In this document: positions 1 through 62,941 of the stretch, piece after piece
Layout: every line of letters starts with the position of its first letter
Position numbering within the stretch: the stretch's first letter is position 1
Assembly (NCBI GenBank): GCA_965603515.1
Contig: CBFDDH010000001.1
Coordinates: 80,568-144,567, forward strand
DNA: 64,000 bases
Source: an uncultured bacterium
GTDB taxonomy: Bacteria > Hydrothermota > Tepidihabitantia > SM23-42
Direction of reading: 5' to 3'
Translations under genes and position numbers: made by a program
The notes under the pieces: model-generated
Databases searched by the model: none
Told to the model about the DNA's origin: nothing
What the model saw: only the letters and a program-made list of their open reading frames with translations

Positions 1-290
1 GATCCTTTTGACTATCGCGAAAGCGAATAATCCTATGTATGGGCAGAGCTTTTTTCACCAGTAAGAACTTCTGCCTGATATACCTTACCCGAACGAGCAA
101 TCTCCGGTCAGTAATAGTAAATCTGATTGTGTCTTCAATAAATTTTAGGGACTCGTTTAATCGGTTGAGGTTTGCGTCTGCGATGCGCTCCCATTGCACG
201 TTTAATTATAATAGAACAAGTTACTCATGTCAATGGGGAAAAGATGCAATATCGGGGTAACGGAGAAATACATTCGCTGGAATAAATTAA

Positions 291-375
291 TAGCGTTATG
301 ATCGTTTAGACCGTTTTGATCGTTAATATCGTTGTTTTTCGCCCTACGCTTTACTCACTACGCCTTACGCTTTTT
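291..375. repeat. 84-85 bp direct repeat, copy 1 (iteron-like sub-repeats)
   Basis: tagcgttatgatcgtttagaccgttttgatcgttaatatcgttgtttttcgccctacgctttactcactacgccttacgctttt identical to 4595-4678. Confidence 0.9.
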
Positions 376-1060
376 CCAGACTGTACTCCACGGCACTTAT
401 CGCGTGGATCCTTGTCGTGTTAAGAAAAGGGATCCCGAATTCATCTTTGGGTAAAATGAGAGGAAGCTCGGTGCAACCAAGGATGACCCCCTGTATAGAT
501 TCTTCAGCGATCATGCGCTTGATGATCACAAGCAGACCTTGTTTTGTCTCCTTCAATATCTTATTGTGCATTATCTCATTCATCAGCTTATTATGAATAT
601 ACTCCTTTTCAGATTCTTCAGGGGTAATAATATCAATGCTAGCCTTGGCAAAAATACGTTGATAAAAACCTGCGCTCATCGTTGTTTTCGTACCTAAAAG
701 CGCTACCTTATGCAGACGGGCGTGCCTGGCAACCTGGCATGTTGCTTTAACAATGCTGAGCATGGGTATGGGTGAACGTGCCTGTAAATCGTCAAAAACA
801 ATATGTGGTGTATTAGATGCAATGAGGGCAAAATCAGCCCCGGCGCGATGCAGTACCTGCACGGCTTCAGCCAACCAAGCTACAGTCTTCTCAGTACTAT
901 CGGTCGTGACCGCACAAGGGAAATCCTTCATGTTTACGCTATAGATAATGACTTCAGGATAAGCACCTCTGGTTTTTTTTTGATAAAGTTCATTGATTAT
1001 CCGATAGTACTCAGCTGTTGCCTCAGGACCCAATCCACCGACAATACCGATCCTCTTCAT
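365..1060 (-). CDS. Asp/Glu/hydantoin racemase family protein (aspartate racemase-like)
   Basis: 231 aa ORF; N-terminal MKRIGIVGGLGPEATAEYY and second Cys-containing half-site typical of Asp/Glu racemase superfamily; SD GGAGG upstream. Confidence 0.6.
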   Translation of the reverse strand: MKRIGIVGGLGPEATAEYYRIINELYQKKTRGAYPEVIIYSVNMKDFPCAVTTDSTEKTVAWLAEAVQVLHRAGADFALIASNTPHIVFDDLQARSPIPMLSIVKATCQVARHARLHKVALLGTKTTMSAGFYQRIFAKASIDIITPEESEKEYIHNKLMNEIMHNKILKETKQGLLVIIKRMIAEESIQGVILGCTELPLILPKDEFGIPFLNTTRIHAISAVEYSLEKA

Positions 1061-1091
1061 AAGACCTCCATATCAACGATATATCACACGT

Positions 1092-1550
1092 TCAGACATC
1101 AGAATTTCTTCTCTTTGAAAGATATACAATGTCACCGTGACGTTTGTAACCCATACGCTGAAATGCTTCCATTGAAACAGTATTCCAATCCTCGACAAGA
1201 CAGGCGATTATCTCAATACCCAGATCATGCAATCGCTCCTCCACTTCTCGTACCAACCGTGCGCCAAGCCCCTGTGTACGTTGCGCTGGAGTTACTGCCA
1301 ACCGGTTAATCCAACCTTTACGTCCATCATGGGTACCAAAGATAGAGCCGATCAGTTCACCTTCACGCTCGGCTACCAAAAAAATAGCGGCTGAAGTTTT
1401 CAGTTCGCGTTCTATGCACTCACGTCGGTCTCGACCCTTGGGCTTATATGGTAAGCCCGCATCCTGCCACAAGGAGATCAACCTATCATAATCTTTAATA
1501 CAAAAAGAAGAAATGATGATCTTTCCGCCCTGATCATCCAAAGTCTTCAT
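1092..1550 (-). CDS. GNAT family N-acetyltransferase
   Basis: Acetyl-CoA binding motif region RLAVTPAQRTQGLGARLVREVEE; start moved to internal Met to limit overlap with downstream CDF gene. Confidence 0.6.
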   Translation of the reverse strand: MKTLDDQGGKIIISSFCIKDYDRLISLWQDAGLPYKPKGRDRRECIERELKTSAAIFLVAEREGELIGSIFGTHDGRKGWINRLAVTPAQRTQGLGARLVREVEERLHDLGIEIIACLVEDWNTVSMEAFQRMGYKRHGDIVYLSKRRNSDV

Positions 1551-2466
1551 TATCGCCAATCGGTTCAGGGTGCACAGTAACCTCTGCACCTTCAATTCTT
1601 TGTTTGATCGTCAATTCGACTAATGATGCTATCTTATGCGCTTTGTCGAGATGAATATTGCGGCGTAAACGAACATGGACAGTTATTTCAAGTTTCCCGC
1701 CGTAATCATGGACATGAATGTGGTGTACATCACTGATATCTTCACAACATAGCGCTGTCGCCCTGATATCGCTAATCAAATGATCTGATGGTGCCTCTCC
1801 GAGAAGCGTGCTACCTGACTCAAATATCATCATGATACCAGTATACACAATAAACATGGCGATAATGATACTGAGAATTCCATCAACCTGATAGAATCCA
1901 AACCGAAATAGAATAAAACCAATAATAACGAGAACCGTTGAAACCGCATCGGTACCATGATGCCAGGCATCTGCTTTTAAAGCCGCCGAATGAACGTGCT
2001 TGCCAAGATCATATGAAATAACGGACAGCAATATCTTTGCAATAATTGTCACCGCAAGAATGACAATAATCAACGAGCTGGATTCAACCGGCACAGGCGT
2101 TCTAACCCGGCTAATGCCATTCATGAAAAACTCAAGACCAACGACTATCAGCATACAGGCAATAACGATTGCGACGATCCTTTCTGCCCTGCCGTGTCCA
2201 AAAGGATGTTTTTTATCGGGCGGCTTTGTTGAGATCATAAAGCCAATAATAACAACAAGTGAGGATGCAACATCGGATAAGGAATGGACTGCATCGGCGA
2301 TAAGGGCCATACTATTTACCATTATGCCGAAGAAGAACTTCACGGCCGAGATAAGGAGGTTTACTACGATGCTTAGACCACCAGCAAAATACCCACAGTT
2401 TTTCCTCTCATTACCTTTATCAAGATGAAAGCTAGAAATAATAACACTCATAAGTCTTTTCATCAT
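1534..2466 (-). CDS. cation diffusion facilitator (CDF) family metal efflux transporter
   Basis: 310 aa, six predicted TM helices, HSLSDVASSL and His-rich metal sites, C-terminal cytoplasmic domain typical of CzcD/FieF. Confidence 0.75.
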   Translation of the reverse strand: MMKRLMSVIISSFHLDKGNERKNCGYFAGGLSIVVNLLISAVKFFFGIMVNSMALIADAVHSLSDVASSLVVIIGFMISTKPPDKKHPFGHGRAERIVAIVIACMLIVVGLEFFMNGISRVRTPVPVESSSLIIVILAVTIIAKILLSVISYDLGKHVHSAALKADAWHHGTDAVSTVLVIIGFILFRFGFYQVDGILSIIIAMFIVYTGIMMIFESGSTLLGEAPSDHLISDIRATALCCEDISDVHHIHVHDYGGKLEITVHVRLRRNIHLDKAHKIASLVELTIKQRIEGAEVTVHPEPIGDNEDFG

Positions 2467-2549
2467 GGTCTCTGTTTTGATTATAGATTATTTGCGATGA
2501 TTGTCAATTGCCGGGGTTGTCTGATTCATCTGGGCTATGGCCGCCCGAC

Positions 2550-3359
2550 TCAGCGCGTATTAATTGTGTTCAGTTCCTCGGCAAGTTCCTCTGAAGTATA
2601 ATCTTGTTTTCTAACGCGCAGATCGAAATACAAAAGGACTGAACCGAGCACAGCTACAGGCATCCCCACTATCGTACTAATCGCTACGCCAAGAACCGGG
2701 ATTATGCCAGCGATCGAATTGATACCCGCTACGATTACTGCAAACATCAAATTGATGCCGAACACGCGCCACCAATTACCTTTAACAAGAGCATAGCTCT
2801 TAGAAAATGCCTCGATAATACCCGTTCCCCTAATCATCACACACGGCAAAGCAAAACACCAACATACACCAAGATAAATGGCAAAAGGTATGCCGATTAC
2901 GGTCAGGACAAGAGCACCGAGTGCCAAACCAACAAGTATGCTCGTGCCCAACGCAGTGCCCAGTCGGGACCAAGCATACCTATATGAATCACTAAAACCA
3001 ATGTCTTTATCATAATACTGCGCAGCAACGAAATAAATCAAAGCGCATTGAACCAAAACACTGACTATGATAAAACCAATGTAGCCAAGCACGCCACCGA
3101 TAATTATATATGGTAATACGCTCATCATCCTGTCGCTCTCGCTGAGCAAAGGAAATAGAAAAAAACCCCCATATATTGCTACGAAAAAAAACGCATTAAG
3201 AACACCGGTGATCGCAGCGATCGCCCAAAGTTTCGTGTAATTGCTTTTATAGATACGAAAAGCCTCGGAAAGAAGGTCTTCGAGTTTCCTCGGACCGAAG
3301 CTGATTTCTTGCGTTGTATTCAATTCTGTAGCCATTAGAAACGAAGGTCTTTTGCCCAT
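2550..3359 (-). CDS. polytopic membrane protein of unknown function
   Basis: 269 aa, multiple hydrophobic helices, no recognisable catalytic motif. Confidence 0.4.
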   Translation of the reverse strand: MGKRPSFLMATELNTTQEISFGPRKLEDLLSEAFRIYKSNYTKLWAIAAITGVLNAFFFVAIYGGFFLFPLLSESDRMMSVLPYIIIGGVLGYIGFIIVSVLVQCALIYFVAAQYYDKDIGFSDSYRYAWSRLGTALGTSILVGLALGALVLTVIGIPFAIYLGVCWCFALPCVMIRGTGIIEAFSKSYALVKGNWWRVFGINLMFAVIVAGINSIAGIIPVLGVAISTIVGMPVAVLGSVLLYFDLRVRKQDYTSEELAEELNTINTR

Positions 3360-4516
3360 AAGTGGGCGTATTTTATCCCGCTCGCGGTATTGAATAATAC
3401 CACAGTTTCACTCTCGCGAATCCAATCTTGCTGGCGTAGGTATTTGAAGGCAACGAGGGTTGCTCCTCCTTCAGGACAACAAAAAATACCCTCGGTGTTT
3501 CCGATCTGCATTATCGCTTCGATCATTGCATCATCCGGAACCGCGATCGCCGTACCCTTGCTTTCCTTTAGCGTACGCAGAATCAAAAAATCACCGATCG
3601 CCGCCGGTACGCGCAAACCATCGGCAATGGTCTCTGCGTCACGCCACGGGGTTGCCGTAGCTTCCCCTTGATTGAACGCAGTTACGATCGGTGCACACCC
3701 TTTAGCTTGAACTGATACCAAACGCGGCAACTTCGATTTTATCCAACCAAGATTCTTGAGTTCTTCAAATGCCTTCCACATGCCGATAAGACCAGTGCCG
3801 CCACCAGTTGGGTAAATGATAACATCGGGTAAGTTCCAGTTAAGTTGTTCCGCCAGCTCAAAACCCATGGTTTTCTTGCCCTCTATACGATATGGTTCTT
3901 TGAGCGTTGACATGTCAAACCTGCTATATTGAGCTACATCATGAGCTGCCTGCTGCCCGCAGTGAGTAATATACCCCTCCACGAGTTTTACCTGAGCTCC
4001 TCTTGCTATGCATTCAATAACAAAGGTCTTGGGCACGTCCTTAGGCATATAAACAAAGGATTTCAAGCCACCGAGTGCCGCATACGCACTCATAGATACC
4101 GCGGCGTTACCAGCTGATGGCACCGCCAGTTCTTGTATCCCGAATTCACGTGCCCGGGATACCGCAACCGACATGCCGCGGTCCTTAAAGGAGCCGGTCG
4201 GATTCTGGCTTTCGTCCTTGATATAGAGATTGCCAAAATCCAAAACTTCACCGAGGTTTCGGGCATGGATCAATGGCGTGAACCCTTCACCGAGTGAAAG
4301 GATGCTCTTGTTATTCTGCAAGGGAAGCAATTCTTTATAACGCCACAGGTTTGGTGCACGTTTTGCTATATCCTCGCGTTTGACTGCCTTGCGAACTTTT
4401 TTCAGGTCATAAAGAACGACCAGAGGTTTACCACAAAACGAACAAAGATTCCAGCGTCTATCCGCCTCCAGCTTATTGCCGCATTTTGAGCACTCTAAGT
4501 GACTGACGAAAGCCAT
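3335..4516 (-). CDS. thrC: threonine synthase with N-terminal zinc ribbon
   Basis: 393 aa; CxxC...CxxC N-terminus, PLP-lysine motif GSFKDRG, fold-type II PLP enzyme, length and motifs of ThrC. Confidence 0.8.
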   Translation of the reverse strand: MAFVSHLECSKCGNKLEADRRWNLCSFCGKPLVVLYDLKKVRKAVKREDIAKRAPNLWRYKELLPLQNNKSILSLGEGFTPLIHARNLGEVLDFGNLYIKDESQNPTGSFKDRGMSVAVSRAREFGIQELAVPSAGNAAVSMSAYAALGGLKSFVYMPKDVPKTFVIECIARGAQVKLVEGYITHCGQQAAHDVAQYSRFDMSTLKEPYRIEGKKTMGFELAEQLNWNLPDVIIYPTGGGTGLIGMWKAFEELKNLGWIKSKLPRLVSVQAKGCAPIVTAFNQGEATATPWRDAETIADGLRVPAAIGDFLILRTLKESKGTAIAVPDDAMIEAIMQIGNTEGIFCCPEGGATLVAFKYLRQQDWIRESETVVLFNTASGIKYAHLWAKDLRF

Positions 4517-4521
4517 GAATC

Positions 4522-4550
4522 ATTGTACACACAATGTGGTAAATTGTCAA
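4522..4550 (-). promoter_or_regulatory. sigma70-like promoter TTGACA-17-TACAAT placing TSS at the thrC start codon (leaderless)
   Basis: Minus-strand reading ttgacaatttaccacattgtgtgtacaatgattcATG; no SD between -10 and ATG. Confidence 0.45.
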
Positions 4551-4594
4551 TCATCCCGGCAAAATTATATAGCCATCATGTCACTGCGTCACTA

Positions 4595-4678
4595 TAGCGT
4601 TATGATCGTTTAGACCGTTTTGATCGTTAATATCGTTGTTTTTCGCCCTACGCTTTACTCACTACGCCTTACGCTTTT
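4595..4678. repeat. 84 bp direct repeat, copy 2, immediately upstream of thrC promoter
   Basis: Identical to 291-374 by eye across all 84 bp. Confidence 0.9.
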
Positions 4679-4725
4679 CCTGTTCCTCCCATACTCCGAT
4701 ACCCCATTACTCCGTTACTATCGTT

Positions 4726-5460
4726 CTACTTGTCTTTTATTTCTTCAAGTAGTTCAAGCGCTTCAGGCTTATCATCTAATACAAAATCAGCCATGTAGGT
4801 TGGATCCTGTATGTCGAGCAACCTCTTCAAATACCAACGTGCTTTCTCATAGTCCTTTTTCTTTATCCAGACTTTAGCCATATCAACGTAAAGCAAACTA
4901 TAATTAGAATCTATTTCAATACCCTTATTGAGCGCTTCCGAGGATTTATTCAGATTGCCACCTAGTAACCCTGGTAATTCATAGTACAACATCGCTTTCA
5001 CATCGAGCGCACCGGTATGTTCTGGATCCAGCTTCAGGATCTTATCTAGTTCTTTTTTTATCTCAGGGACTGATGCGAGAGAATTCAGCACGCCCTTTGT
5101 CTGCCCTATCCTACCGATATTAACAACATACCAAAAGTGAGCCCATTTAGAATTGCCATCGAGTTTAATCGCTTTTTTCGCGTGTTTCTTACCCGTTTCA
5201 TATAATGCAAGCTTGTCTTTCTTACTATTAGCTTCGTCCCCTAGCAGATAATAAATCCTGGAAAGTTCATAAAGAGCACGTACATTTTCCGGTTCTTGTT
5301 CAATTACGTTGCTGAGTACCTCAGCACTCTTCGCGAGGTTTCCGCTGTTCAAATGGCGCGTTCCGAATAACTCAATTGCATTATCGATAAGAGAATCACT
5401 TGATTGAGCAGTAATAAGAGATACTACAACGAATAGTCCTATTAAATAACGTCTTAACAT
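4726..5460 (-). CDS. TPR repeat protein with signal peptide
   Basis: 244 aa; hydrophobic N-terminus, repeated A/Y/L-rich 34-residue TPR-like units; SD AGGAGG upstream. Confidence 0.6.
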   Translation of the reverse strand: MLRRYLIGLFVVVSLITAQSSDSLIDNAIELFGTRHLNSGNLAKSAEVLSNVIEQEPENVRALYELSRIYYLLGDEANSKKDKLALYETGKKHAKKAIKLDGNSKWAHFWYVVNIGRIGQTKGVLNSLASVPEIKKELDKILKLDPEHTGALDVKAMLYYELPGLLGGNLNKSSEALNKGIEIDSNYSLLYVDMAKVWIKKKDYEKARWYLKRLLDIQDPTYMADFVLDDKPEALELLEEIKDK

Positions 5461-5474
5461 ATAACCTCCTCAGC

Positions 5475-5535
5475 ACAATAGTTATTGGGCTTGGGTTATG
5501 AAGCTGGAATCCAGCATTCAGACCAAACCCATATT
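5475..5535. repeat. G-rich-TIR intercistronic element, family 1 copy A (short)
   Basis: gttattgggcttgggttatgaagctggaatccagcattcagaccaaacccatattctatctc; between TPR gene start and deacetylase stop. Confidence 0.6.
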
Positions 5536-10065: not shown

Positions 10066-11262
10066 CTAATCCTTATAAGATTGAAGAGCAGCGCCCAAGA
10101 CCTCAATTGCTTCTTTGAGATCTTCACTGTTCAGAACATAAGCAATGCGCACTTCGCTAACTCCTTTATCCTGCGACGAGTAAAAACCATTTGCCGGAGC
10201 AAGCATTAAGGTCTTATTCTTGTAAGAAAAGTCAGTCAAAAGCCATCGGCAAAATTTATCGGCATCCTGTACGGATAATCGCAAAATACCATAAAAAGCA
10301 CCTTCAGGCTTATGTGCGTAAACCCCTTGAACAGTATCCAACCCTTTGAATAACAAATTCCGACGCATCTCATATTCCTCAATCATTGGTCGCACGTATT
10401 TCTCGATATTTCGGTATGCGGCTATCGCACCCACCTGTTCAAGGGTGGGCGGACAGAGCCGCGCTTGCCCGAATTTAAGAAGCCGGTCCATAATCGTTTT
10501 ATTGTGACTTATGATCGTACCAACACGAGCACCGCAGGCAGAAAACCGCTTGGAAATAGAATCCATAACGATCACACGGTCCTTGATCTCAGGTAATGAA
10601 AGGGCACTTGTCTGAACATTGCCATCGTAGACAAACTCCCGGTAAACCTCATCCGAAAGAAGATACAAATTGTGCTTCTTGCAGAGGCTGTTCAATATAA
10701 ACATCTCTTCTTCAGTAAGCACTGTTCCGGTCGGATTGTTTGGCGTATTGATAAGTATTGCCCTTGTTTTATCAGTGATCTTCGCTTCAATAGTTTCCTT
10801 GGATGGCAAATGGAATCCATCCTCAACCCTGGTTGTAACGGGAACGAGGTTTAATTGCGACATTACGGCAAAACCGTTATAATTAGTGTAGAAAGGTTCA
10901 AAAACAATCATTTCATCACCCGGGTCAGCAACCGCCATCATCGCAAAAATGATCGCTTCACTCCCTCCTGTAGTGATCCACACATTATCTATATCAATGT
11001 CAAAACCGAGCTTTCGATGGTAATCTACTACCGCTACCCTGAGATCAACCAAACCGCCTGAAGGTCCGTAGCCAAGAACGTCTTTTTGAAACCCAGCGAT
11101 CGATTCGAATATTTCAACAGGGGTCTTGATGTCTGGCTGTCCGATGTTCAGGTGAAATACGTGTATGCCTTTTTTCTTTGCCTCTTCGGCAAAAGGGACG
11201 AGCTTGCGGATCGCTGAATATGGCATCTGCTCGGCTCTTCTCGATAATTTCATTTCAGCCAT
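10066..11262 (-). CDS. pyridoxal phosphate-dependent aminotransferase, class I/II
   Basis: 398 aa; PLP-lysine region SISKRFSACGARVG, NPTG motif, fold-type I aminotransferase architecture. Confidence 0.75.
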   Translation of the reverse strand: MAEMKLSRRAEQMPYSAIRKLVPFAEEAKKKGIHVFHLNIGQPDIKTPVEIFESIAGFQKDVLGYGPSGGLVDLRVAVVDYHRKLGFDIDIDNVWITTGGSEAIIFAMMAVADPGDEMIVFEPFYTNYNGFAVMSQLNLVPVTTRVEDGFHLPSKETIEAKITDKTRAILINTPNNPTGTVLTEEEMFILNSLCKKHNLYLLSDEVYREFVYDGNVQTSALSLPEIKDRVIVMDSISKRFSACGARVGTIISHNKTIMDRLLKFGQARLCPPTLEQVGAIAAYRNIEKYVRPMIEEYEMRRNLLFKGLDTVQGVYAHKPEGAFYGILRLSVQDADKFCRWLLTDFSYKNKTLMLAPANGFYSSQDKGVSEVRIAYVLNSEDLKEAIEVLGAALQSYKD

Positions 11263-11343
11263 GCGAAATTATATATATCTAACTATAAAAGTCAATATAT
11301 GCAGAATTTCATGAACTCCTCCATCAGAGCGCGAGGTGTACGC

Positions 11344-11371
11344 TTGACTTTTAACCATTCAGGGATATACT
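11344..11371 (+). promoter_or_regulatory. sigma70-like promoter TTGACT-16-TATACT placing TSS at the pepA start codon (leaderless)
   Basis: cgcTTGACTtttaaccattcagggaTATACTtaagtttATG; 7 nt from -10 to ATG, no SD. Confidence 0.45.
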
Positions 11372-11378
11372 TAAGTTT

Positions 11379-12875
11379 ATGAGAATAGAAACTGTGAACA
11401 AAAAAATCACCGATTTCACTGGTGACATTATAATAACAAACTTGTTTGAGGGAGTACGCAGACCTGGCGGCGCAACCGGTACAATCGATAAGGCTCTTGG
11501 CGGCATAATAACAAAATTGGTCAGGAACGGCGAACTGTCAGGCAAGCTCGGCGAGACCACGGTCGTCCACACCTTTGGTAAGATTAAAGCCAACAAAGTG
11601 CTGATTATAGGTCTGGGCAGAGCTGGAGATTTTAACGTTGAGCGAATTCGAAAGGCTGCAGGTGCTGCGATCAAACAGGCACGTAAAGCCGGTGCAGGAA
11701 AAGTCGGAACCATTGTCCACGGTGCAGGCATTGGCGGCATTGAACCAAAACAGGCGGCGCAGGCATTGACCGAAGGCTCTTTACTTGCATTGTACGAATT
11801 CAAGAAATACAAAAAATCCGATAAAAAACCGATCACCCATCTCTCAATCGTTGAGATAGACCGCAGAAAAATTTCCGAGTTCAAAAAGGGCATTGGCTCG
11901 GGTACGATTCTTGCACAGGCACAGAATATCGCGCGGGATCTCATAAATGAACCTGGTAATAACCTGACGCCTGAGAAACTTGAACTCCGATTGAAAAAAG
12001 CGATAAAGACACTGGGTTTGAATAAAACTATTGGGTATCGGTCCTTGAAGAAAAAAGGCCTGGAAGCATTGAAAATGGGTGCGTTGATGTCGGTTACAAA
12101 GGGCAGCAATAATAAACCAGCGTTCATCGTTCTTAGATACAAAAATACGCGTAAACCCCTGACATGTTTGATCGGCAAAACTGTCACCTTTGATTCGGGA
12201 GGAATTTCCTTGAAATCTCCATCAGGTATGGCACGCATGAAGGGCGATATGTCTGGTGGCGCAGCAGTGATCGGTGCAACCCTTGCGCTTGCCAAAATAA
12301 AAGCCAAGGTGAATCTCATGACTATTATCCCGGCGGTGGAGAACATGCCCTCGGGCACTGCATCAAGACCGGGCGATATCGTTACCGCAATGAACAAAAA
12401 AACTATTGAAATAATTTCAACTGACGCAGAAGGTAGAATGACTTTGGCCGATGCGATCAGTTATGCCGAACAGAAAGGAGCCAAGACGATAATCGACATC
12501 GCTACATTGACTGGAGGTTGCGTTGTTGCATTAGGCGACATCACTGCCGCAGTTATGGGTAATGACCAACGTCTAATCAATCTGCTGCTCAGCTGTGCAG
12601 AAAAAACCGGCGAGAGAATGTGGCAATTACCTTTATTCAATGAATATGAAAAACAAATAAAAAGCGATATCGCTGACGTTAGGAACTCGGGCGGTCGAGG
12701 AGCCTCGGCTATTACTGCAGGCTTATTCCTGAAGAAGTTTGTCAATAAAACACGGTGGCTCCATATTGATATGGCAGGTAAAGAAATAAGTGAAAAGGAA
12801 AGCTTCTACACACCAAAAGGCGGAACTGGATACGGCGTAAGGACTCTTTACGAATTTATCATAGGACTCGAATAG
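11379..12875 (+). CDS. pepA: leucyl aminopeptidase (M17 family)
   Basis: 498 aa; NTDAEGR-type signature (STDAEGRMTLADA) and Zn/Mn ligands of M17 peptidases. Confidence 0.85.
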   Translation: MRIETVNKKITDFTGDIIITNLFEGVRRPGGATGTIDKALGGIITKLVRNGELSGKLGETTVVHTFGKIKANKVLIIGLGRAGDFNVERIRKAAGAAIKQARKAGAGKVGTIVHGAGIGGIEPKQAAQALTEGSLLALYEFKKYKKSDKKPITHLSIVEIDRRKISEFKKGIGSGTILAQAQNIARDLINEPGNNLTPEKLELRLKKAIKTLGLNKTIGYRSLKKKGLEALKMGALMSVTKGSNNKPAFIVLRYKNTRKPLTCLIGKTVTFDSGGISLKSPSGMARMKGDMSGGAAVIGATLALAKIKAKVNLMTIIPAVENMPSGTASRPGDIVTAMNKKTIEIISTDAEGRMTLADAISYAEQKGAKTIIDIATLTGGCVVALGDITAAVMGNDQRLINLLLSCAEKTGERMWQLPLFNEYEKQIKSDIADVRNSGGRGASAITAGLFLKKFVNKTRWLHIDMAGKEISEKESFYTPKGGTGYGVRTLYEFIIGLE

Positions 12876-12877
12876 CT

Positions 12878-13831
12878 TTGTTAATTTTTCTACTAATAGC
12901 AACAGGCTTGAACAGTGCATCAACGCCCATCAACTATTATACCCTGTCTAATCCATCATTTACTGCATTTCGCGGTAATTATCAAGTATTTATTGAACCC
13001 AAGGATGTCGGAGAGATCGCTGTTGTCAGCTGTGCAGCACGTTTTTATGACTGGGGACTCGGTTTTTCCAATATGCATGAAGGTATCGAACGGAGAAACT
13101 GGGTAAGTATCAGCCACCACCTAAGAAAAATACCGCTATCTCTTGGACTCAATGCGGGAATCATCAAAGTTTACGACAATGCAGACGGATTATTTGACCT
13201 GGGGGTCTGGTACCGGACTAAACTGTCTCTTGGAGTAAACTACTCGAACATATTGAACGAAGACAGAATACTGAAAGCAGGCCTATCTTATACATGGAAA
13301 CAGTTTATGGCAGGTGTTGAAATCGAAGACTCAACACGCACCCACAACCTAACCCCTCACGCAATAATCGGTTTCCGACAACCGGTTGGGGATTTCTGTT
13401 TGAGGGCATATGCAGGATTTTGTCCGGGGACATTGAGTGCTGGACTGGGTATCGAATTCAGAGATTTTATAAGCGGCATGGTTTTCCTTGAGGACAGCAC
13501 GATGAACGTGATCATTGGACTGCATTTCCGACCACCGGTAAAAGTAAAAGAAGTCACAGTCGTTGATACCCTATTCGTTCACAAAAAGGTGATCGTCGAA
13601 AAACCCGCGATAAGAAAAGAACCGGAACCAAGCCCGGTCAAACCGCTATTAAAAAAAGACCGGCAATACTGCGAAGAACACTACTTAAAGGGTATCGAGT
13701 ACTATGTAAGCAACCAACTCAATGAAGCGATCGCTGAATGGAAACTGGTTGCTAAAGTCTACGCTGAGTATAAAGATGTCAAGCGTTATTTAGAGAACGC
13801 GCAGGCAAAACTGGAGTTATTGGAAGAATGA
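12878..13831 (+). CDS. hypothetical secreted/outer-membrane protein (beta-rich N-domain, helical C-terminus)
   Basis: 317 aa; TTG start directly after pepA stop, hydrophobic signal-like N-terminus, alternating hydrophobic pattern, TPR-like C-terminal helices; start uncertain. Confidence 0.35.
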   Translation: MLIFLLIATGLNSASTPINYYTLSNPSFTAFRGNYQVFIEPKDVGEIAVVSCAARFYDWGLGFSNMHEGIERRNWVSISHHLRKIPLSLGLNAGIIKVYDNADGLFDLGVWYRTKLSLGVNYSNILNEDRILKAGLSYTWKQFMAGVEIEDSTRTHNLTPHAIIGFRQPVGDFCLRAYAGFCPGTLSAGLGIEFRDFISGMVFLEDSTMNVIIGLHFRPPVKVKEVTVVDTLFVHKKVIVEKPAIRKEPEPSPVKPLLKKDRQYCEEHYLKGIEYYVSNQLNEAIAEWKLVAKVYAEYKDVKRYLENAQAKLELLEE

Positions 13832-14522: not shown

Positions 14523-15779
14523 ATGGCAAAAAGTTTATTTGTAACAGCAATAGAAACACTTGATAGTGTTGCGAAAATGGTGAATCTCGATCCGAATATT
14601 CTTGCTGTTCTAAAAGAACCAGAAAGGGAACTGAAAGTCGCAATTCCAGTTAATATGGATGATGGACATACCGAGGTGTTTACAGGCTATAGAGTGCAGC
14701 ATTCAAGTGTAAGAGGACCCTGCAAAGGGGGAATAAGATACCATCCAGATGTTACCCTGGACGAGGTCAAAGGTCTCGCAACGCTAATGACACTCAAATG
14801 TGCAGTTGTAAATCTTCCCTATGGTGGAGCCAAAGGCGGGGTCAAGTGTGATCCGTTCAAAATGTCAAGAAGAGAGATTGAAAACCTGACGAGACGTTAT
14901 ACGGTAATGATTATGCCAATTATTGGTGGCAGAAGGGATATCCCGGCTCCTGATGTCAACACAAATCCAGAGACGATGGGATGGATAATGGATACGGTCA
15001 GTATGTTTGAGGGACGGACTGTCCTCGAAATCGTTACGGGCAAACCACCTGACCTGGGCGGTTCATGCGGCAGATTTGAAGCAACTGGAAGAGGCGTAAT
15101 GCTTTCGACCATCCAGGCGCTCAAGAAAAAGAGATGTGATCCAGAGAAAACAACCGTGGCGATCCAGGGTTTTGGCAATGTAGGATCAATTGCAGCAAAG
15201 CTTCTCGTTGAAAAAGGATGTAAGATTGTTGCAGTGAGTGACGTCACAGGTGGTTTCTACAATCCCAAGGGACTGGACATGGAGAGTATATTCAAACACG
15301 TTGAATCCTCAGAGAATCACCTGCTGAAAGGCTATCAGAAGAAAGGCACTGAACCGATTTCCAACGAGGAGTTGCTTTTACTGGATGTTGATGTGCTAAT
15401 CCCGGCTGCGTTGGAAAATCAAATCACCGAAAAGAACGCCTCCAAAGTCAAAGCCAAGTTCATTGTTGAAGGTGCAAATGGTCCCACTACAACAGAGGGA
15501 GACGAAATTCTTGATGATAAAGGAACAATTGTGATACCGGATATATTAGCGAATAGTGGTGGTGTCATAGTCTCATACTTTGAATGGGTGCAAGGCCTGC
15601 AGTGTTTTTTCTGGGATGTTAGCCAAGTTAATTCACACCTTGAAAAAATTATGACAAATGCTTTTGATAGTGTCTGGACACTTGCTCAGGAAGAAAAAAC
15701 GAACGTAAGAAATGCCGCTTTTATGATTGCTCTTGAAAGAGTAGCGAATGCACTCCGCGAACGGGGAATCTTTCCATAA
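14523..15779 (+). CDS. gdhA: NAD(P)-specific glutamate dehydrogenase
   Basis: 418 aa; Glu/Leu/Phe/Val dehydrogenase active-site region KGGIRYHPDVTLDEVKGLATLMTLKCAVVNLPYGGAKGG; SD AAGGAGG. Confidence 0.9.
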   Translation: MAKSLFVTAIETLDSVAKMVNLDPNILAVLKEPERELKVAIPVNMDDGHTEVFTGYRVQHSSVRGPCKGGIRYHPDVTLDEVKGLATLMTLKCAVVNLPYGGAKGGVKCDPFKMSRREIENLTRRYTVMIMPIIGGRRDIPAPDVNTNPETMGWIMDTVSMFEGRTVLEIVTGKPPDLGGSCGRFEATGRGVMLSTIQALKKKRCDPEKTTVAIQGFGNVGSIAAKLLVEKGCKIVAVSDVTGGFYNPKGLDMESIFKHVESSENHLLKGYQKKGTEPISNEELLLLDVDVLIPAALENQITEKNASKVKAKFIVEGANGPTTTEGDEILDDKGTIVIPDILANSGGVIVSYFEWVQGLQCFFWDVSQVNSHLEKIMTNAFDSVWTLAQEEKTNVRNAAFMIALERVANALRERGIFP

Positions 15780-16096
15780 AGGATTCGAGTAAACGTGAAA
15801 TAATCATAGTGTTGCAGATAACTATTCTTTCAAGAAGAGACAATAGAACGTTCTTCACCAGCTAAAACGGAAATGCAAGGGAATTTTCTCTCTGATTCAA
15901 ATTTCTCTACTGGTCATTTCTCTATATCAGTAATCAAAGCAATGGCTGAAGAACTGCAAATATTCACTTCAAATCTATCTGAAGAGTTTTTCAGGAATTA
16001 AGTCCGGATAACGGATGAAATTGGAAGCTTTGAGTAGCACTAGATAACGAAAGGCGATACATTGTTAAGGTCGAGCATTAAGCGTAGAGCAAAAAC

Positions 16097-16127
16097 AAAA
16101 GGGGCGGTTTTTCAACCGCCCCTTTAA
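16097..16127. terminator. bidirectional rho-independent terminator hairpin
   Basis: aaaaGGGGCGGTTtttcAACCGCCCCtttaa: GC-rich 10-bp stem flanked by A-run and T-run, between convergent gdhA and flavoprotein genes. Confidence 0.7.
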
Positions 16128-21759: not shown

Positions 21760-22016
21760 AAGACTAAAATCATCAAATCACAAACGGCAAATAATCCCGA
21801 AAATCTACGATATGAAAATGAGACAAAATTTTCGAGGATGCTCGCTTCGCGCAACAAACAATCTCCAATGACCTAAACCACAAATAAGAAATAGAGAAGT
21901 TTTGATATTTAAATTTCAGCATTGTTTGGAATTTGGTGCTTGTGTTCTGCAATTTCCAGTACAGTATTCTTGATTTGCATGATGTGAATTCTCGAACTTT
22001 AGAACGATGCCTCCGT

Positions 22017-29519: not shown

Positions 29520-29537
29520 AGCAACTCCTTTTCAAAA

Positions 29538-29610
29538 TGGTCATTGGGTTAGGTTAGGAAGCTAGAAAAGAATCCAGCATCCACACCCAAACCCATTTTC
29601 CATATTCTAT
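29538..29610. repeat. family 1 element copy B
   Basis: tggtcattgggttaggttaggaagctag...atccagcatccacacccaaacccattttccatattctat; fills spacer between HADH stop and thiolase start. Confidence 0.7.
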
Positions 29611-31845: not shown

Positions 31846-32044
31846 CTTACCTCCTTCCAGATAAATACTAAATTCTGATCTCTTCAGCCTGAGGCTGATC
31901 CACCTCGGGTGGAAAATCGTACCTAAACAAATTCAAATGTTTTAAACGTTTCTTATTTTGTATTTCTGTCATTTGATATTGTTTAGGATTTAGTACTTAG
32001 ATATTGTCTACTCATTCATTCTGATCTCCTGAAAACACTCACCA
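31846..32044. repeat. AT-rich CCAAA/TTTAGG-armed intercistronic element, family 2, with twin-hairpin core (31885-31915)
   Basis: core cagcctgaggctgatccacctcgggtggaaaat; flanking ataaatactaaattctga ... gtttaggatttagtacttag inverted arms. Confidence 0.55.
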
Positions 32045-33451: not shown

Positions 33452-33595
33452 AAACGATTAAATCTCAAAACCCAAGTATCAAAAACCAAACAATACCTAA
33501 ATTCCAATACCGAATTTTCTTTTTTATTTTTAAGTTTAGGATTTTGGTCATTATTAATTATTTGTAATTTGGGATTTGTAATTTGGAACTTGCCC
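33452..33595. repeat. family 2 AT-rich element
   Basis: aaacccaagtatcaaaaaccaaacaatacctaaattccaatacc ... aagtttaggattttgg ... tttgggatttgtaatttgg. Confidence 0.5.
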
Positions 33596-36420: not shown

Positions 36421-36440
36421 TGCACCCCTTTTTGCAGTAA

Positions 36441-36540
36441 TGGTTATTGGGTTAGGGGTAAGATACTAGATTTCAAGCATCCATACCTATCTTCTATCTT
36501 TTTTTGTAGCATCCAAACCTAAACCCATCTTCTATATGTC
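36441..36540. repeat. family 1 element copy C
   Basis: tggttattgggttaggggtaagatactagatttcaagcatccata...catccaaacctaaacccatcttctatatg. Confidence 0.75.
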
Positions 36541-36542
36541 GA

Positions 36543-38150: not shown

Positions 38151-38253
38151 AATCTCCTTCTAAATCCTAAACACTATTATTTAAACTTGATTGTTGATTT
38201 ATGAGTTTGAATCTTTGGGATTTGTTTGTCATTTGGTATTTGTAATTTGGATC
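38151..38253. repeat. family 2-related spacer (tttgg arm)
   Basis: gaatctttgggatttgtttgtcatttggtatttgtaatttggatc. Confidence 0.4.
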
Positions 38254-38643: not shown

Positions 38644-38741
38644 GTAACCTCCTTTTAGAAACAAATACCTAAAAGTCCAAAAATCCAAAATACCTAAAGA
38701 AAAATACCAAACAAATCTTAGGCATTTAGGTGTTTAGTTAT
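38644..38741. repeat. family 2 AT-rich element
   Basis: aaatacctaaaagtccaaaaatccaaaatacctaaag ... cttaggcatttaggtgtttag (latter shared with 42360-42382). Confidence 0.5.
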
Positions 38742-39890
38742 TTATATTAGTTTGAATATATGTGTCACGGATGATGCTCCTGAACCACCCATATTCTGAG
38801 TCAATCCTATCTTTGCGTTCTTCACCTGACGCTTGCCAGCCTTGCCACGTAACTGTTCAACCACCTCAACAACTTGCGCAATACCAGTAGCACCAACCGG
38901 ATGCCCCTTTGATTTCAAGCCGCCCGATGGGTTGACTGGAATCTTACCTTCCAAAGCGGTATTCCCCTGCTCTGTAAAAGGACCACCTGTGCCTTTTTCA
39001 GTAAAACCCAATTCCTCAATAATGCAGATCTCGGCGATCGAGAAACAATCATGGACCTCAGCCACATCAATCTCTGATGGCTTAACACCAGCCATCTTAT
39101 AGGCAACCTCACCTGATACTTTAACCGCTTTCAAAGCAGTTATGTCTTCGCGACTGTGCAGGGCAAGTGTATCAGTGGCCGCACCTGAACCGAGTATCTT
39201 AACCAACGGTACTTTCAGCTGCTTGGCAAAATCAACTGATGTGAGAACAACGCATGCTGCGCCATCAGAAACCGGTGAACTGTCGAGCACCGTCAGCGGA
39301 TCAGCAACCAATGTCGCATTCATGACTTGTTCAAGCGTGACTTCTCTTTGGAATTGGGCATTGGGATTCATCGCACCGTTATGGTGATTTTTTACTGATA
39401 CTGCAGCCAACTGCTCCCTCGTTGTGCCGTAGCGATGCATATGGGCTCGAGCGATCAAAGCGTAAAGGCCAGGAAAAGTCACGCCTTGATACACCTCATA
39501 TTCCTGATCGGCTGCCGTAGCAAGCGCGTAAGTAGCATCAGCGCCGTCATTCATCTTTTCAACACCACCGACCAAAACTACATCACTATGACCTGAAGAA
39601 ATTTCAAAAAGACCGAGTCTCAACGCCATACCACTTGAACAACACGCTGATTCAACACGCATCGCTGGTATCGGAGCCACGCCCAGATAATCCGCCATCA
39701 AAGCACTGATGTGTTCCTGACCAACAAAAAGTCCTGGGGTCATTGCACCAACATACATCGAATCAATATGATCCACACCTGCATCATCGATCGCCTTTAG
39801 GGCAGCTTCAACGAAGATGTCCCTCAGAGACTTTTCCCAGAGCTCACCAAATTTGGTCATTCCACAACCAATTACTGCAACTTCTCTCAT
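38742..39890 (-). CDS. acetyl-CoA acetyltransferase, archaeal-type thiolase
   Basis: Start at [15 protein letters not shown] with SD; thiolase catalytic Cys region, GHPVGATG C-terminal motif; ORF track N-extension rejected. Confidence 0.75.
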
Positions 39891-40964: not shown

Positions 40965-41070
40965 TGGTTATTGGATTTGGGTTAGGATGCTGGATATAAT
41001 CAATAAATAAAATCTAGCTTCCAAACCCATCTTCCATCTTTTTTCTAGCATCCAAACCTAAACCCATCTT
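40965..41070. repeat. family 1 element copy D
   Basis: tggttattggatttgggttaggatgctggat...tctagcttccaaacccatcttccatctttttt ctagcatccaaacctaaacccatcttctata; internal tandem sub-units. Confidence 0.75.
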
Positions 41071-42240: not shown

Positions 42241-42389
42241 TCCTCCCTATTGCAAACACCTAAGAATCCAAAATTCCCAAATTCTTCACCCTGAGGCTGA
42301 TCCACCTCGGGCGGAAAATTAGTGCTCTGATACACTGATGTTCTGATAACATAATATTCTTCACTTTAGGCATTTAGGTGTTTAGGTAT
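42241..42389. repeat. family 2 element with twin-hairpin core (42288-42318)
   Basis: aaacacctaagaatccaaaattcccaaa ... ccctgaggctgatccacctcgggcggaaaat ... tttaggcatttaggtgtttaggtatctagg; inverted arms about 15 bp. Confidence 0.55.
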
Positions 42390-42800
42390 CTAGGCATTTT
42401 TGTCTTTTTCGGTTAATTCAATCAAAACACCACCCATATCCTTTGGATGGATAAATGCTATCTTGTTCCCCCCCGCGCCAATTCTCGGAACCTCATCGAT
42501 CAACCGGACATTGTGACTCTTCATCTCGGCTAGTACCTTCTCAATATCATCAACCCGAAAACACAGATGATGCAATCCTTCACCCCTTTTTTCTATGAAT
42601 TTAAAAACCTGGCTCTCTTCACTTGTCGGTTCTACTAATTCAATATGGGTTCCGCTGATATCCAACTTGGCTACTTTGACCTTTTGATCCTCAACCTCTT
42701 CGAGATTCGCCAAGCCCAAACCCAACGCATCTTTCCATACATACAATCGTTCTTCAATAGATTTAACTGCGATGCCTATATGATCTAGTTTCATATTCAT
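42390..42800 (-). CDS. methylmalonyl-CoA epimerase (VOC/glyoxalase family)
   Basis: 136 aa; paired beta-alpha-beta-beta-beta modules with His/Glu metal ligands (HIGIAV...HIELVEP...HLCF...ELTE). Confidence 0.7.
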   Translation of the reverse strand: MNMKLDHIGIAVKSIEERLYVWKDALGLGLANLEEVEDQKVKVAKLDISGTHIELVEPTSEESQVFKFIEKRGEGLHHLCFRVDDIEKVLAEMKSHNVRLIDEVPRIGAGGNKIAFIHPKDMGGVLIELTEKDKNA

Positions 42801-45298: not shown

Positions 45299-45317
45299 TC
45301 AAAACCTCCTTGCTAAA

Positions 45318-45425
45318 TGGTTATTGGGTTAAGGTTAGGACGCTGGATTTCAAACATCCATAGTCAAACCTGTCTTCTATCTTTCTCTAGTTTCCAAACC
45401 CATCTTCCATCTTTTTTTTAGGTAT
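45318..45425. repeat. family 1 element copy E
   Basis: tggttattgggttaaggttaggacgctggatttcaaacatccatagtcaaacctgtcttctatctttctctagtttccaaacccatcttccatctttttttta. Confidence 0.75.
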
Positions 45426-51120: not shown

Positions 51121-51208
51121 ACGCTTACCCCCTGCATACCTTAAACGTTAAACCACAAATCCCAAGCACCAAATTACAAACAATACCTAAATTACGAACA
51201 TACTAAAC
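51121..51208. repeat. family 2 AT-rich element
   Basis: caaatcccaagcaccaaattacaaacaatacctaaattacg ... catttggaatttttg. Confidence 0.4.
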
Positions 51209-52575: not shown

Positions 52576-52597
52576 AAATCATCCTCCTTCATCAAAA

Positions 52598-52697
52598 TGG
52601 TCATTGGGTTAGGGTTTAGCCCGCCCCGCTTCGCGGCACGAGGTCGGGGAAACGAGAAAAAAATCCAGCATCCAAACCTAAACCAATCTTCCATCTA
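52598..52697. repeat. family 1 element copy F with GC-rich 36-bp internal insert
   Basis: tggtcattgggttagggtttag then cccgccccgcttcgcggcacgaggtcggggaaacg then aaaaaaatccagcatccaaacctaaaccaatcttccatcta. Confidence 0.7.
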
Positions 52698-62827: not shown

Positions 62828-62847
62828 AATAACCTCCTAACAATGCT

Positions 62848-62941
62848 GGTTATTGGGTTAGGGTTAGGACACTGGATTTCAAGCATCCATACTCAAGCCT
62901 GTCTTCTATCTTTCTCTAGCTTCCAAACCCAAACCCACCAT
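62848..62941. repeat. family 1 element copy G (most regular copy)
   Basis: tggttattgggttagggttaggacactggatttcaagcatccatactcaagcctgtcttctatctttctctagcttccaaacccaaacccaccatcta. Confidence 0.8.

Follow-up and report, generated by a model that had tools for sequence, protein, structure and literature searches.

Two sequences of 85 bp, identical at every position, lie in direct orientation 4304 bp apart near the start of the window, the 64,000-nucleotide stretch of DNA from an uncultured bacterium that was analysed here. Five genes lie between them. What does such a pair of repeats stand for? The sequence-only reading of this DNA offered iteron-like binding sites for a regulator, recombination sites or a duplication scar delimiting a translocated cassette, and a highly conserved dispersed repeat, and it named an assembly artefact as a concern. 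We examined the repeat itself, the reliability of the assembly, the order of the surrounding genes and the occurrence of related copies in other genomes.

Structure of the repeat

Copy 1 (290..374, minus strand) is located in the gap between the racemase gene and thiDE, and it reads AAAAGCGTAAGGCGTAGTGAGTAAAGCGTAGGGCGAAAAACAACGATATTAACGATCAAAACGGTCTAAACGATCATAACGCTAT on the gene (minus) strand. Copy 2 (4594..4678, minus strand) is located in the gap between the TPR gene and thrC. The two copies agree at 85/85 positions; the perfect direct repeat described earlier is real, and it is one base pair longer than the 84 bp given for it. The sequences immediately flanking the two copies share nothing with each other, as had been observed before. 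When up to three mismatches were allowed, the 85-mer matched the 64-kb window at these two places only, and the expectation from shuffled sequences is 0.

The repeat is made up of two short arrays. Module B (340..374, minus strand, in copy 1; 4644-4678 in copy 2) consists of five heptads, GCGTAAG GCGTAGT GAGTAAA GCGTAGG GCGAAAA, with a 7-bp period, and it has stop codons in all three frames of the gene strand. Module C (290..333, minus strand, in copy 1; 4594-4637 in copy 2) consists of five 9-bp units, AACGATATT AACGATCAA AACGGTCTA AACGATCAT AACGCTAT, of which the first two alone belong to the family-wide conserved core described below. On the plus strand, CGTT/AACG recurs at offsets 4, 13, 22, 31 and 40 of the 85-mer, which gives a strict 9-bp period over five units. 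The sub-repeats had been described as phased at about 10 bp, with GAYCGTT at four offsets. This does not hold: the periods are strictly 9 bp and 7 bp, with five units each, and GAYCGTT occurs only three times (offsets 10, 19 and 28). The recurrence of TACGC(T/C)TT is real as an iteration, and its unit is corrected to TACKC, found at four offsets (55, 62, 69 and 76) with a strict 7-bp period. DNA curvature, which would call for a 10-bp helical phase, was rejected on the basis of the 9-bp period. GATC methylation was also set aside; each copy holds two GATC sites, and the observed/expected ratio of GATC in the window, 0.85, is unremarkable.

The sequences next to the two copies belong in part to the same family. 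Upstream of copy 2 lies module A (4679..4725, minus strand), a GGA-rich array with an 8-bp period (GGAGTAAT GGGGTATC GGAGTATG GGAGGAAC), which also precedes module B in the related sequences L031, L123 and L141. Copy 1 continues into a 3′ extension of 31 nt (259..289, minus strand; TAATTTATTCCAGCGAATGTATTTCTCCG...), which is homologous to the sequence after module C in L031, L123 and L125; from 374 to 259, the window is 94.8% identical to site A of L031 over 116 nt. Because this additional family homology is missing from copy 2, the 85 bp correspond to the overlap of two differently truncated family members.

RNA folding of the element gave z-scores of −0.44 (gene strand) and +0.94 (opposite strand), no better than shuffles. 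A repeat search revealed no inverted repeats within or around the 85-mer, and no terminal inverted repeats. Rfam gave no match at the gathering score in the window, L002, L123, L125 or L129, and none at E≤1 in L002. A structured RNA (riboswitch, sRNA or leader) was rejected on the lack of a fold signal and of an Rfam match, and on an orientation to transcription that flips between genomes.

Assembly and gene order

Metagenome assemblies can misjoin at repeats, and other assemblies do break at this locus: short contigs of two of them stop 11–16 nt past the TPR stop codon, as is expected at a repeat. A chimeric join or a collapsed repeat in the window is nevertheless contradicted by ENA assembly ERZ25073479, made independently from a population that differs slightly from this one (99.9% identity). 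That assembly carries both repeat junctions with copies identical to those of the window (L002 2742-2826 for copy 1 and L001 9533-9617 for copy 2). Its contigs differ from the window at 5/11080 and 3/3115 nt, and the two contigs that bear the junctions have equal coverage (5.03x and 5.10x). The gene order also matches that of relatives. The artefact is excluded by this independent assembly, and we assign it practically no probability.

The five genes between the copies are as first described, and all are on the minus strand: an Asp/Glu racemase (365-1060), a GNAT protein (1092-1595), a CDF transporter (1534-2466; a separate 12/12 promoter for this gene lies at 2507-2480), a GPDPase_memb-like membrane protein (2550-3359) and thrC (3335-4516), whose product is a genuine threonine synthase (588 bits; cut-off, 303). 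Copy 1 overlaps the final codons of the racemase gene and its stop codon, TAA (365..367, minus strand). In relatives the racemase protein ends ...YSLE; here the repeat appends K-A-stop. The predicted thrC promoter (TTGACA-N17-TACAAT, 4522..4550, minus strand; 11/12 match) is conserved in L031, L123 and L125. Its −35 hexamer is 43 bp downstream of copy 2, which therefore does not sit right on the promoter, as had been thought. The predicted promoter ends 5 nt before the ATG, which suggests that the thrC mRNA may be leaderless. Downstream of copy 1, after 56 bp, comes the predicted thiDE promoter (TTGACA-N17-TATAAT, 205..233, minus strand; 12/12 match), and the GTG start at ~199 follows this promoter by 5 nt. 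No regulator gene was found near the repeats, no integrase, transposase or tRNA was found within ±10 kb, and the Rfam search detected no TPP riboswitch upstream of thiDE or thiC.

Perfect direct repeats that flank 4.3 kb, together with a GC content that climbs to ~0.50 inside thrC, would fit attL/attR-type sites or a duplication scar, with the five-gene block inserted or translocated as a unit. The position and order of the block are, however, unchanged in all relatives examined. The order TPR-thrC-...-CDF-GNAT-(racemase)-thiDE-hpf-hprK-...-thiC is seen in L123, L125, L126-128, L132-137 and L141-142. Nine related genomes or assemblies keep it across both repeat sites, even where one of the sites, or both, are without a copy, and from TPR to thiDE it is conserved down to ~70% identity, with the element present or absent. 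The cassette reading is contradicted because synteny is conserved with or without the repeat. A third copy outside the block, the internal promoters of the block itself and the lack of an integrase or tRNA within ±10 kb also count against an insertion, which we consider very improbable. The synteny comparison, suggested earlier as a check, indicates that the block between the copies is ancestral and not imported.

Copies in related genomes

The family has copies at three intergenic sites, and six further genomes or assemblies also contain members. They lie between the end of a transcription unit and the promoter that follows it, upstream of thrC, thiDE and thiC. The family core is ~58 nt long and comprises five GCGTARN heptads, followed by AAAAACA and two AACGATNNN nonamers. 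The variable flanking modules are short imperfect arrays: GGAGTAWN with an 8-bp period upstream, extra 9-bp units downstream, and a CAGCGAAGCGTGTCT-type module. Non-orthologous intergenic copies share the 58-nt core and differ in the A, C-distal and D modules, as is generic for mosaic repeats.

In the same genome, a third copy is located upstream of thiC (L002 7865-7915); it is interrupted by another repeat inserted within module B. The ortholog of the thrC-site copy in L031 (site A) is 83/85 identical. In L123, the copy at site A matches 54/58 positions of the core and has another 3′ part, and the copy at the thiC site (81/85) is in reverse orientation. The copies at the thiDE site of L125 (51/58 over the core) and of L141/L142 (82/87) are also reversed, and the L129 copy is 57/58 identical over the core. 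By genome, the element occupies the thiDE site only in L141, where an IVP gene takes the thrC site instead, the thrC and thiC sites in L123, and the thiDE site only in L125. Occupancy and orientation thus vary among genomes that are 92–95% identical in coding DNA, and in close relatives the element is present, absent, truncated, inverted or interrupted by other elements.

A pattern search of genome contigs with the degenerate pattern ACGATCNNNACGGTCNNNACGATCNNNAC hit at least 120 loci. The pattern is too loose; most of the matches listed are coding tri-peptide (Arg/Asp/Gly-type) repeats in high-GC genomes, and L031 is the sole true family member among them. A search of metagenome contigs with a 20-nt core gave one true match (L129) and two chance matches. 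Pattern searches of viral contigs did not find the element, and BLAST against plasmids and phages gave no match to it. The sole long open frame across the element (TVLIVNIVVFRPTLYSLRLTLF...) was compared with a protein database in search of copies called as spurious ORFs, with no candidates. The window from 12 to 64 kb (~52 kb) and the other 14 kb of L129 contain no further copies, and a literature search on repeats in WOR-3 found nothing. The family is best read as restricted to one clade of the uncultured candidate division WOR-3 / Ca. Stahlbacteria, a distribution that rests on ~200 kb of clade DNA. The idea of a highly conserved dispersed repeat is borne out with a qualification: a third site nearby and several relatives have additional copies, some forward and some reversed, and all of those found are within one ~10-kb neighbourhood.

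Origin of the identical copies

We consider it probable that both 85-mers belong to a mosaic intergenic repeat, lineage-restricted, without coding capacity and not palindromic, whose two copies here were recently homogenised or copied. The copy upstream of thiDE would have been overwritten very recently from the copy upstream of thrC, or both would derive from one master copy, by gene conversion, template switching or another non-reciprocal event. Overwriting would have left 85 identical bases, deprived the racemase gene of its earlier 3′ tail and given it a new stop codon, and the element would require no host function. The five differences private to the thiDE-site copy of L141 are all missing from copy 1, and at the thrC site the window and L031 have orthologous copies that already differ at 2/85 positions; the identity of copies 1 and 2 is therefore younger than the lineage splits. 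Simple inversion of a resident, reverse-oriented copy of the L141 type was rejected as the source of copy 1, given the lack of these differences and its identity to copy 2.

Some observations count against the mosaic-repeat reading. Conservation of the core exceeds that of the coding DNA around it (89.5% against 67–78% for genes in L125; ~95–97% against ~84% in L123), which is not expected of a purely neutral element unless it is spread or exchanged often, and because of this conservation selection for a function is possible. Classic dispersed repeats do not usually cluster as these copies do. We found neither terminal inverted repeats nor target-site duplications nor an associated recombinase, and the means of spread is therefore putative.

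Conservation above that of the flanking genes would also suit a cis-regulatory array, in which the heptads, the nonamers or both are cooperative sites for a lineage-specific DNA-binding protein that co-regulates or insulates thrC, thiDE and thiC. As parallels, ribbon-helix-helix repressors act on heptad arrays, and MetJ acts on tandem 8-bp met boxes. In line with such an array, copies occur only upstream of three strong sigma-70-like predicted promoters in one neighbourhood, thiDE and thiC are without a detected TPP riboswitch, and the 5 module B substitutions of the L125 copy are all confined to heptad positions at which the units themselves differ. The more distant relative L132 has non-homologous AAC-N6 arrays, with a 9-bp period, at the corresponding sites. 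Against it, close relatives can carry the element in opposite orientations at one and the same site, the spacing between element and −35 hexamer spans 7 to >200 bp among copies, and genomes do not agree on which of the three sites (thrC, thiDE, thiC) are occupied. The L123 copies are substituted at invariant heptad positions, no regulator gene is nearby, and there is no evident functional link between thrC and the thiamine genes. We give a regulatory array a modest chance of being right. A more specific version, in which the 58-nt core is a selected protein-binding array, bound by a putative DNA-binding protein of the clade, that acts as an orientation-independent upstream element, controlling or insulating these promoters, and in which mobility between promoters rewires the regulon, seems unlikely. 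Iteron-like regulator-binding sites, as first proposed, may exist: they would fit the conserved core, and the widely varying orientation and promoter distance and the substitutions at core positions of the heptads speak against them.

The identical copies could also result from recent transposition of a non-autonomous mobile element (like MITEs such as Correia and RUP, or served by a recombinase in trans) with a preference for terminator-to-promoter gaps. Presence/absence and orientation polymorphism at orthologous sites in close relatives would agree with this, as would near-identity at non-orthologous sites across genomes (81/85 between the L123 thiC site and the window), the repeat inserted in module B of L002, and the CAGCGAAGCGTGTCT-type module, which is found inverted on either side of the core in different copies. 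No copy, however, is flanked by this module on both sides, the 85-mer lacks terminal inverted repeats, and no target-site duplication was recognisable; where an orthologous site lacks the element, it has other inserts or a diverged sequence. Furthermore, no transposase or integrase is present within ±10 kb, viral contigs, plasmids and phages gave no copy, and every copy found is confined to one neighbourhood. We regard transposition of this kind as quite unlikely.

Comparison with known elements

The mosaic repeat resembles the BIMEs and REP elements of enterobacteria, which are likewise non-coding intergenic mosaics of short conserved modules between transcription units, with module content and orientation that vary among copies and strains. 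REP units are imperfect palindromes (20–40 nt) that form hairpins, are dispersed over the genome in many copies and are linked to RAYT, a Y1 transposase whose gene often accompanies them. The present element differs in that it has no palindrome, folds no better than shuffles and is known from one neighbourhood; no RAYT or other transposase was seen within ±10 kb. A separate hairpin-type repeat family in the window (29–63 kb) is nearer to REP than the 85-mer is. The BOX elements of Streptococcus pneumoniae (boxA-boxB-boxC) are also modular intergenic repeats, with a variable number of internal units between other modules and no coding capacity. They form stable stem-loops via complementary end modules and occur in >100 copies genome-wide. 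The present element has no sequence similarity to BOX, and neither stem-loops nor a high copy number were found for it in the DNA examined. The STRR heptamer arrays of heterocystous cyanobacteria share tandem intergenic heptanucleotide units with module B and its five heptads, but they belong to another phylum, have another unit sequence and form one long homogeneous array; here, the heptads are one module of a longer, conserved and single-copy-like core and are joined to 8- and 9-bp arrays.

Head-to-tail short direct repeats upstream of promoters are shared with the iterons of plasmid Rep proteins, the heptads of the omega repressor and the met boxes of MetJ. In the present element, by contrast, promoter spacing and orientation are not conserved, and the binding protein is putative. 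Plasmid or chromosomal iterons are 17–22 bp long and lie beside a rep or dnaA gene and an origin. The units here are 7, 8 and 9 bp long, with no rep gene and no plasmid match, and the cumulative GC skew is monotonic across the region. The attL/attR sites of integrated islands are similar in that direct repeats flank co-oriented genes; the present locus differs by its lack of an integrase, its ancestral synteny and the third copy outside the block. Unlike integron attC sites, the element has no attC-type imperfect palindrome.

Implications

The attractive reading of a cassette with att-like borders is removed, and the 85-bp identity is read as recent copying between two intergenic gaps. A non-palindromic mosaic repeat is thereby documented in an uncultured phylum with almost no genetics, where it turns over between genomes that are 92–95% identical in coding DNA. 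The repeat can rewrite the 3′ end of a gene and its stop codon, and metagenome assemblies break on it at this locus. Around an essential biosynthetic gene it provides substrates for recombination; with two direct repeats of 85 bp, the 4.3-kb thrC block is open to deletion or duplication by homologous recombination. If the conservation of the core reflects protein binding, the element would point to a novel system by which a lineage without the usual riboswitch regulates its threonine and thiamine genes.

The repeat pair and its genes

An 85-bp sequence is present twice in the window as a perfect direct repeat, at positions 290-374 (copy 1) and 4594-4678 (copy 2), with a spacing of 4304 bp. The sequence-only reading had correctly seen a perfect direct repeat, at 84 bp one base short. 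Its internal periodicity is likewise real, with exact periods other than those described: AACG occurs five times at a spacing of exactly 9 bp, and GMGTA recurs at exactly 7 bp. The flanks directly beside the two copies do not align to each other, as had been observed. No further match to the 85-mer was found in the 64-kb window at ≤3 mismatches (chance expectation, none). On its upstream side copy 2 adjoins a GGAGTAWN tract that repeats every 8 bp (4679-4725).

An assembly artefact, which had been raised as a concern, was ruled out because both junctions are reproduced with identical copies in a separate ENA assembly, ERZ25073479. The two contigs of that assembly that jointly span the region show 5/11080 and 3/3115 differences from the window and contain TPR-copy 2-thrC and racemase-copy 1-thiDE at a coverage of 5.03x and 5.10x. 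The element evidently fragments short-read assemblies. Two short contigs from other samples (L124, 1478 bp; L140, 1875 bp) stop 11-16 nt past the TPR stop codon, which is the start of the repeat-bearing gap, and the related locus L126 has an N run in its racemase-thiDE gap.

Every gene in this part of the window is on the minus strand. In transcription order, the TPR/TatT-like gene (4726-5460) comes first, followed after 47 nt by copy 2. The promoter of threonine synthase (thrC, 3335-4516), TTGACA-N17-TACAAT, starts 43 nt after copy 2 (within 4516-4550) and ends 5 nt before the ATG. Copy 2 is thus upstream of this promoter without overlap, and does not sit on top of it as first thought. Next come a GPDPase_memb-like membrane protein, a CDF transporter with its own promoter (12/12; within 2466-2507) and GNAT. 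The final two codons and TAA stop of the Asp/Glu racemase (365-1060) lie inside copy 1. The promoter TTGACA-N17-TATAAT follows 56 nt after copy 1 (within 199-233), 5 nt before the GTG of a ThiD2-ThiE fusion (thiDE) that extends beyond the window start. The three sigma-70-type promoters are near-perfect (11-12/12). The gap between promoter end and start codon is 5 nt for thrC and thiDE and 13 nt for CDF, which suggests that these mRNAs are leaderless or nearly so. The thrC promoter and its spacing are kept in the relatives L031, L123 and L125. In this clade, searches of the DNA ahead of thiDE and ahead of the 80-aa gene and thiC (2917-3927 and 8006-9498 of L002, the same genome in ERZ25073479; L123; L125) gave no TPP riboswitch. 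The thiC promoter is followed by a stretch of just ~20 nt that includes a ribosome-binding site. The thiamine genes must therefore be under some other regulation.

Copies and gene order in relatives

All the loci retrieved were compared by BLAST with the 85-mer and longer versions of it, which revealed further copies. A third copy in the same genome (L002 7738-7915) lies 4.75 kb beyond the window start, ahead of the 80-aa gene and thiC; its heptad module is interrupted by another small repeat with a terminator-like hairpin. At the thrC site, L031 (coding identity 89-93%) matches at 83/85, and a linker and additional modules come after the element. L123 (~84% identity) has a core of 54/58 with a different 3' part at the thrC site, a reversed second copy at the thiC site (81/85) and no copy at the thiDE site. 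A single reversed copy is found at the thiDE site of L125 (67-78% identity; core 51/58). L141/L142 (92-95% identity) have a reversed copy at the thiDE site (82/87) and none at the thiC site; their thrC site is occupied by a 23S-rRNA-IVP-family gene. The scan of metagenome contigs gave one true match, on the JGI contig L129 after the 84-aa gene (core 57/58); a selenocysteine tRNA gene (L129 2266-2355; Rfam RF01852, 77.8 bits) lies near this copy. All copies found sit in three gaps, each separating the end of a gene from the promoter that follows, in a stretch of about 10 kb; none occurs in window 12-64 kb (~52 kb). At the same sites, the more distant relative L132 has non-homologous AAC-N6 arrays with a 9-bp period.

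The first ~58 nt form the conserved core. Variation affects the distal 9-bp units and the flanks, which themselves consist of short imperfect arrays, and a flanking module (CAGCGAAGCGTGTCT...) is found on either side of the core in either orientation. Every comparison showed higher conservation of the core than of the genes around it, and this requires either purifying selection or frequent copying or exchange.

Homologues of the TPR protein assign the window to candidate division WOR-3/Ca. Stahlbacteria. We compared the locus in L031, L141/142, L123, L125, L126-128, L132-134, L135, L136/137 and L138 (nucleotide identity ~95% to 65%); a comparison of synteny had been suggested. The order TPR-thrC-...-CDF-GNAT-(racemase)-thiDE-hpf-hprK-EIIA-acyl-CoA ligase-84 aa-80 aa-thiC is kept in all of them with local differences: an opposite-strand 310-aa gene replaces or accompanies the membrane protein, and the racemase is absent from L123 and L132. 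In L135 the thrC-membrane protein-310-aa segment (10769-13657) is inverted relative to all other relatives, which shows that rearrangements take place at the locus. From the conserved order it follows that the five-gene block is ancestral at this position. On these grounds, and since no integrase, transposase or tRNA was found near the copies, we rejected the proposal that the repeats mark a cassette border.

Origin of the perfect identity

The thrC-site orthologues of the window and L031 differ at 2/85 positions. The thiDE-site copy of the very close L141 has five differences and is inverted; copy 1 is identical to copy 2 and has none of these differences. A family-type 3' sequence of 31 nt is kept in copy 1 and missing from copy 2; the upstream 8-bp-unit array is kept in copy 2 and missing from copy 1. 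The racemase of relatives ends in ...YSLE followed by variable tails; a repeat module encodes that of L141, EHANAGDTLC*. In the window YSLE is followed directly by the element, which adds K-A-stop. The simplest account is that a thrC-site-type copy was recently copied non-reciprocally into the thiDE gap, perhaps by gene conversion or template switching, where it would have replaced the former content.

Other intergenic elements

The window also has a distinct second family of intergenic repeats, REP/BIME-like, whose members are long imperfect hairpins with arms of 7-8-bp units (GATGGGTTTAGGTTTGGATGCTGGA ... TCCAGCATCCTAACCCTAACCCAATAACCATT). It occurs at window 5461-5535, 29520-29610, 36421-36542, 40965-41070, 45299-45425, 52576-52697 and 62828-62941, just ahead of the next gene's ribosome-binding site, with fold z-scores of -0.55 to -2.4. 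Most members are inside a large acyl-CoA metabolism gene cluster (biotin carboxylase, carboxyltransferase, two methylmalonyl-CoA mutases, acyl-CoA dehydrogenase). Two more low-complexity intergenic families, one in which CAAATTACAAATCCCAAAT... is paired with ATTTAGGTATTGTTTGG and one of TTAGGCAT/TTAGGTGT arrays that repeat every 8 bp, are present at 33452-33595, 38151-38253, 51121-51208 and 21850-21950, and also 38718-38744 and 42366-42400. A conserved 37-mer, TCTTCASCCTGAGGCTGATCCACCTCGGG, is found at 31881-31917 and 42283-42319.

In several relatives a 117-aa IVP-family gene (PF05635) fills the TPR-thrC gap in place of the repeat (L141 530-883, L126 10859-11212, L132 10861-11214, L136 6783-7136), flanked by inverted low-complexity arrays (GATTGTAGATTTCAGATT ... 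AATCTAAAATTTTAAATCTACAATC). The racemase-thiDE gap of L126 (~15760-16100) seems to hold a degraded second copy. Both gaps are thus hot spots at which two unrelated types of element insert.

The 9-mer of the window repeat (AACGATCCN/AACGGTCYN) also forms non-coding tandem arrays in unrelated phyla: in Desulfobacterales MAGs (L011 2380-2640; L028 1700-1880 and 5400-5640; L027; L010), in Vicinamibacterales (L077 4460-4860; L066; L051; L075) and in L122 and L108. They are often back-to-back inverted, beside promoters or start codons. In a Desulfobacterales MAG they are joined to other 7-9-bp-unit arrays in the mosaic style of the window repeat. This spread may only be an effect of the search pattern selecting its matches.

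Nature of the repeat

A structured RNA was rejected: the fold z-scores are -0.44 and +0.94, with no RNA structure found in the repeat, and Rfam gave no match for the element at the gathering score or at E≤1. So was a coding sequence, as every frame of the gene strand contains stops and the one frame open on the opposite strand has no relatives in the database; that frame shows non-conservative changes between copies. REP-type units are palindromic, whereas this element is not. A MITE-like mobile element appears improbable; no terminal inverted repeats bound the element, and no likeness to plasmid or phage sequence was found.

An array of binding sites for a regulatory protein is a legitimate rival, although we regard it as unlikely. 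Heptad and nonamer arrays stand upstream of three strong promoters, in a lineage without the TPP riboswitch at thiDE or thiC. However, the orientation flips between close relatives, the element lies anywhere from 7 to >200 bp away from the -35 hexamer, genomes are inconsistent in which sites are occupied, and the L123 copies carry substitutions at core heptad positions. We favor, as the probable reading, a lineage-specific mosaic intergenic repeat that was recently homogenised at two neighbouring sites and is not a cassette border. The repeat is a real but fairly ordinary feature.
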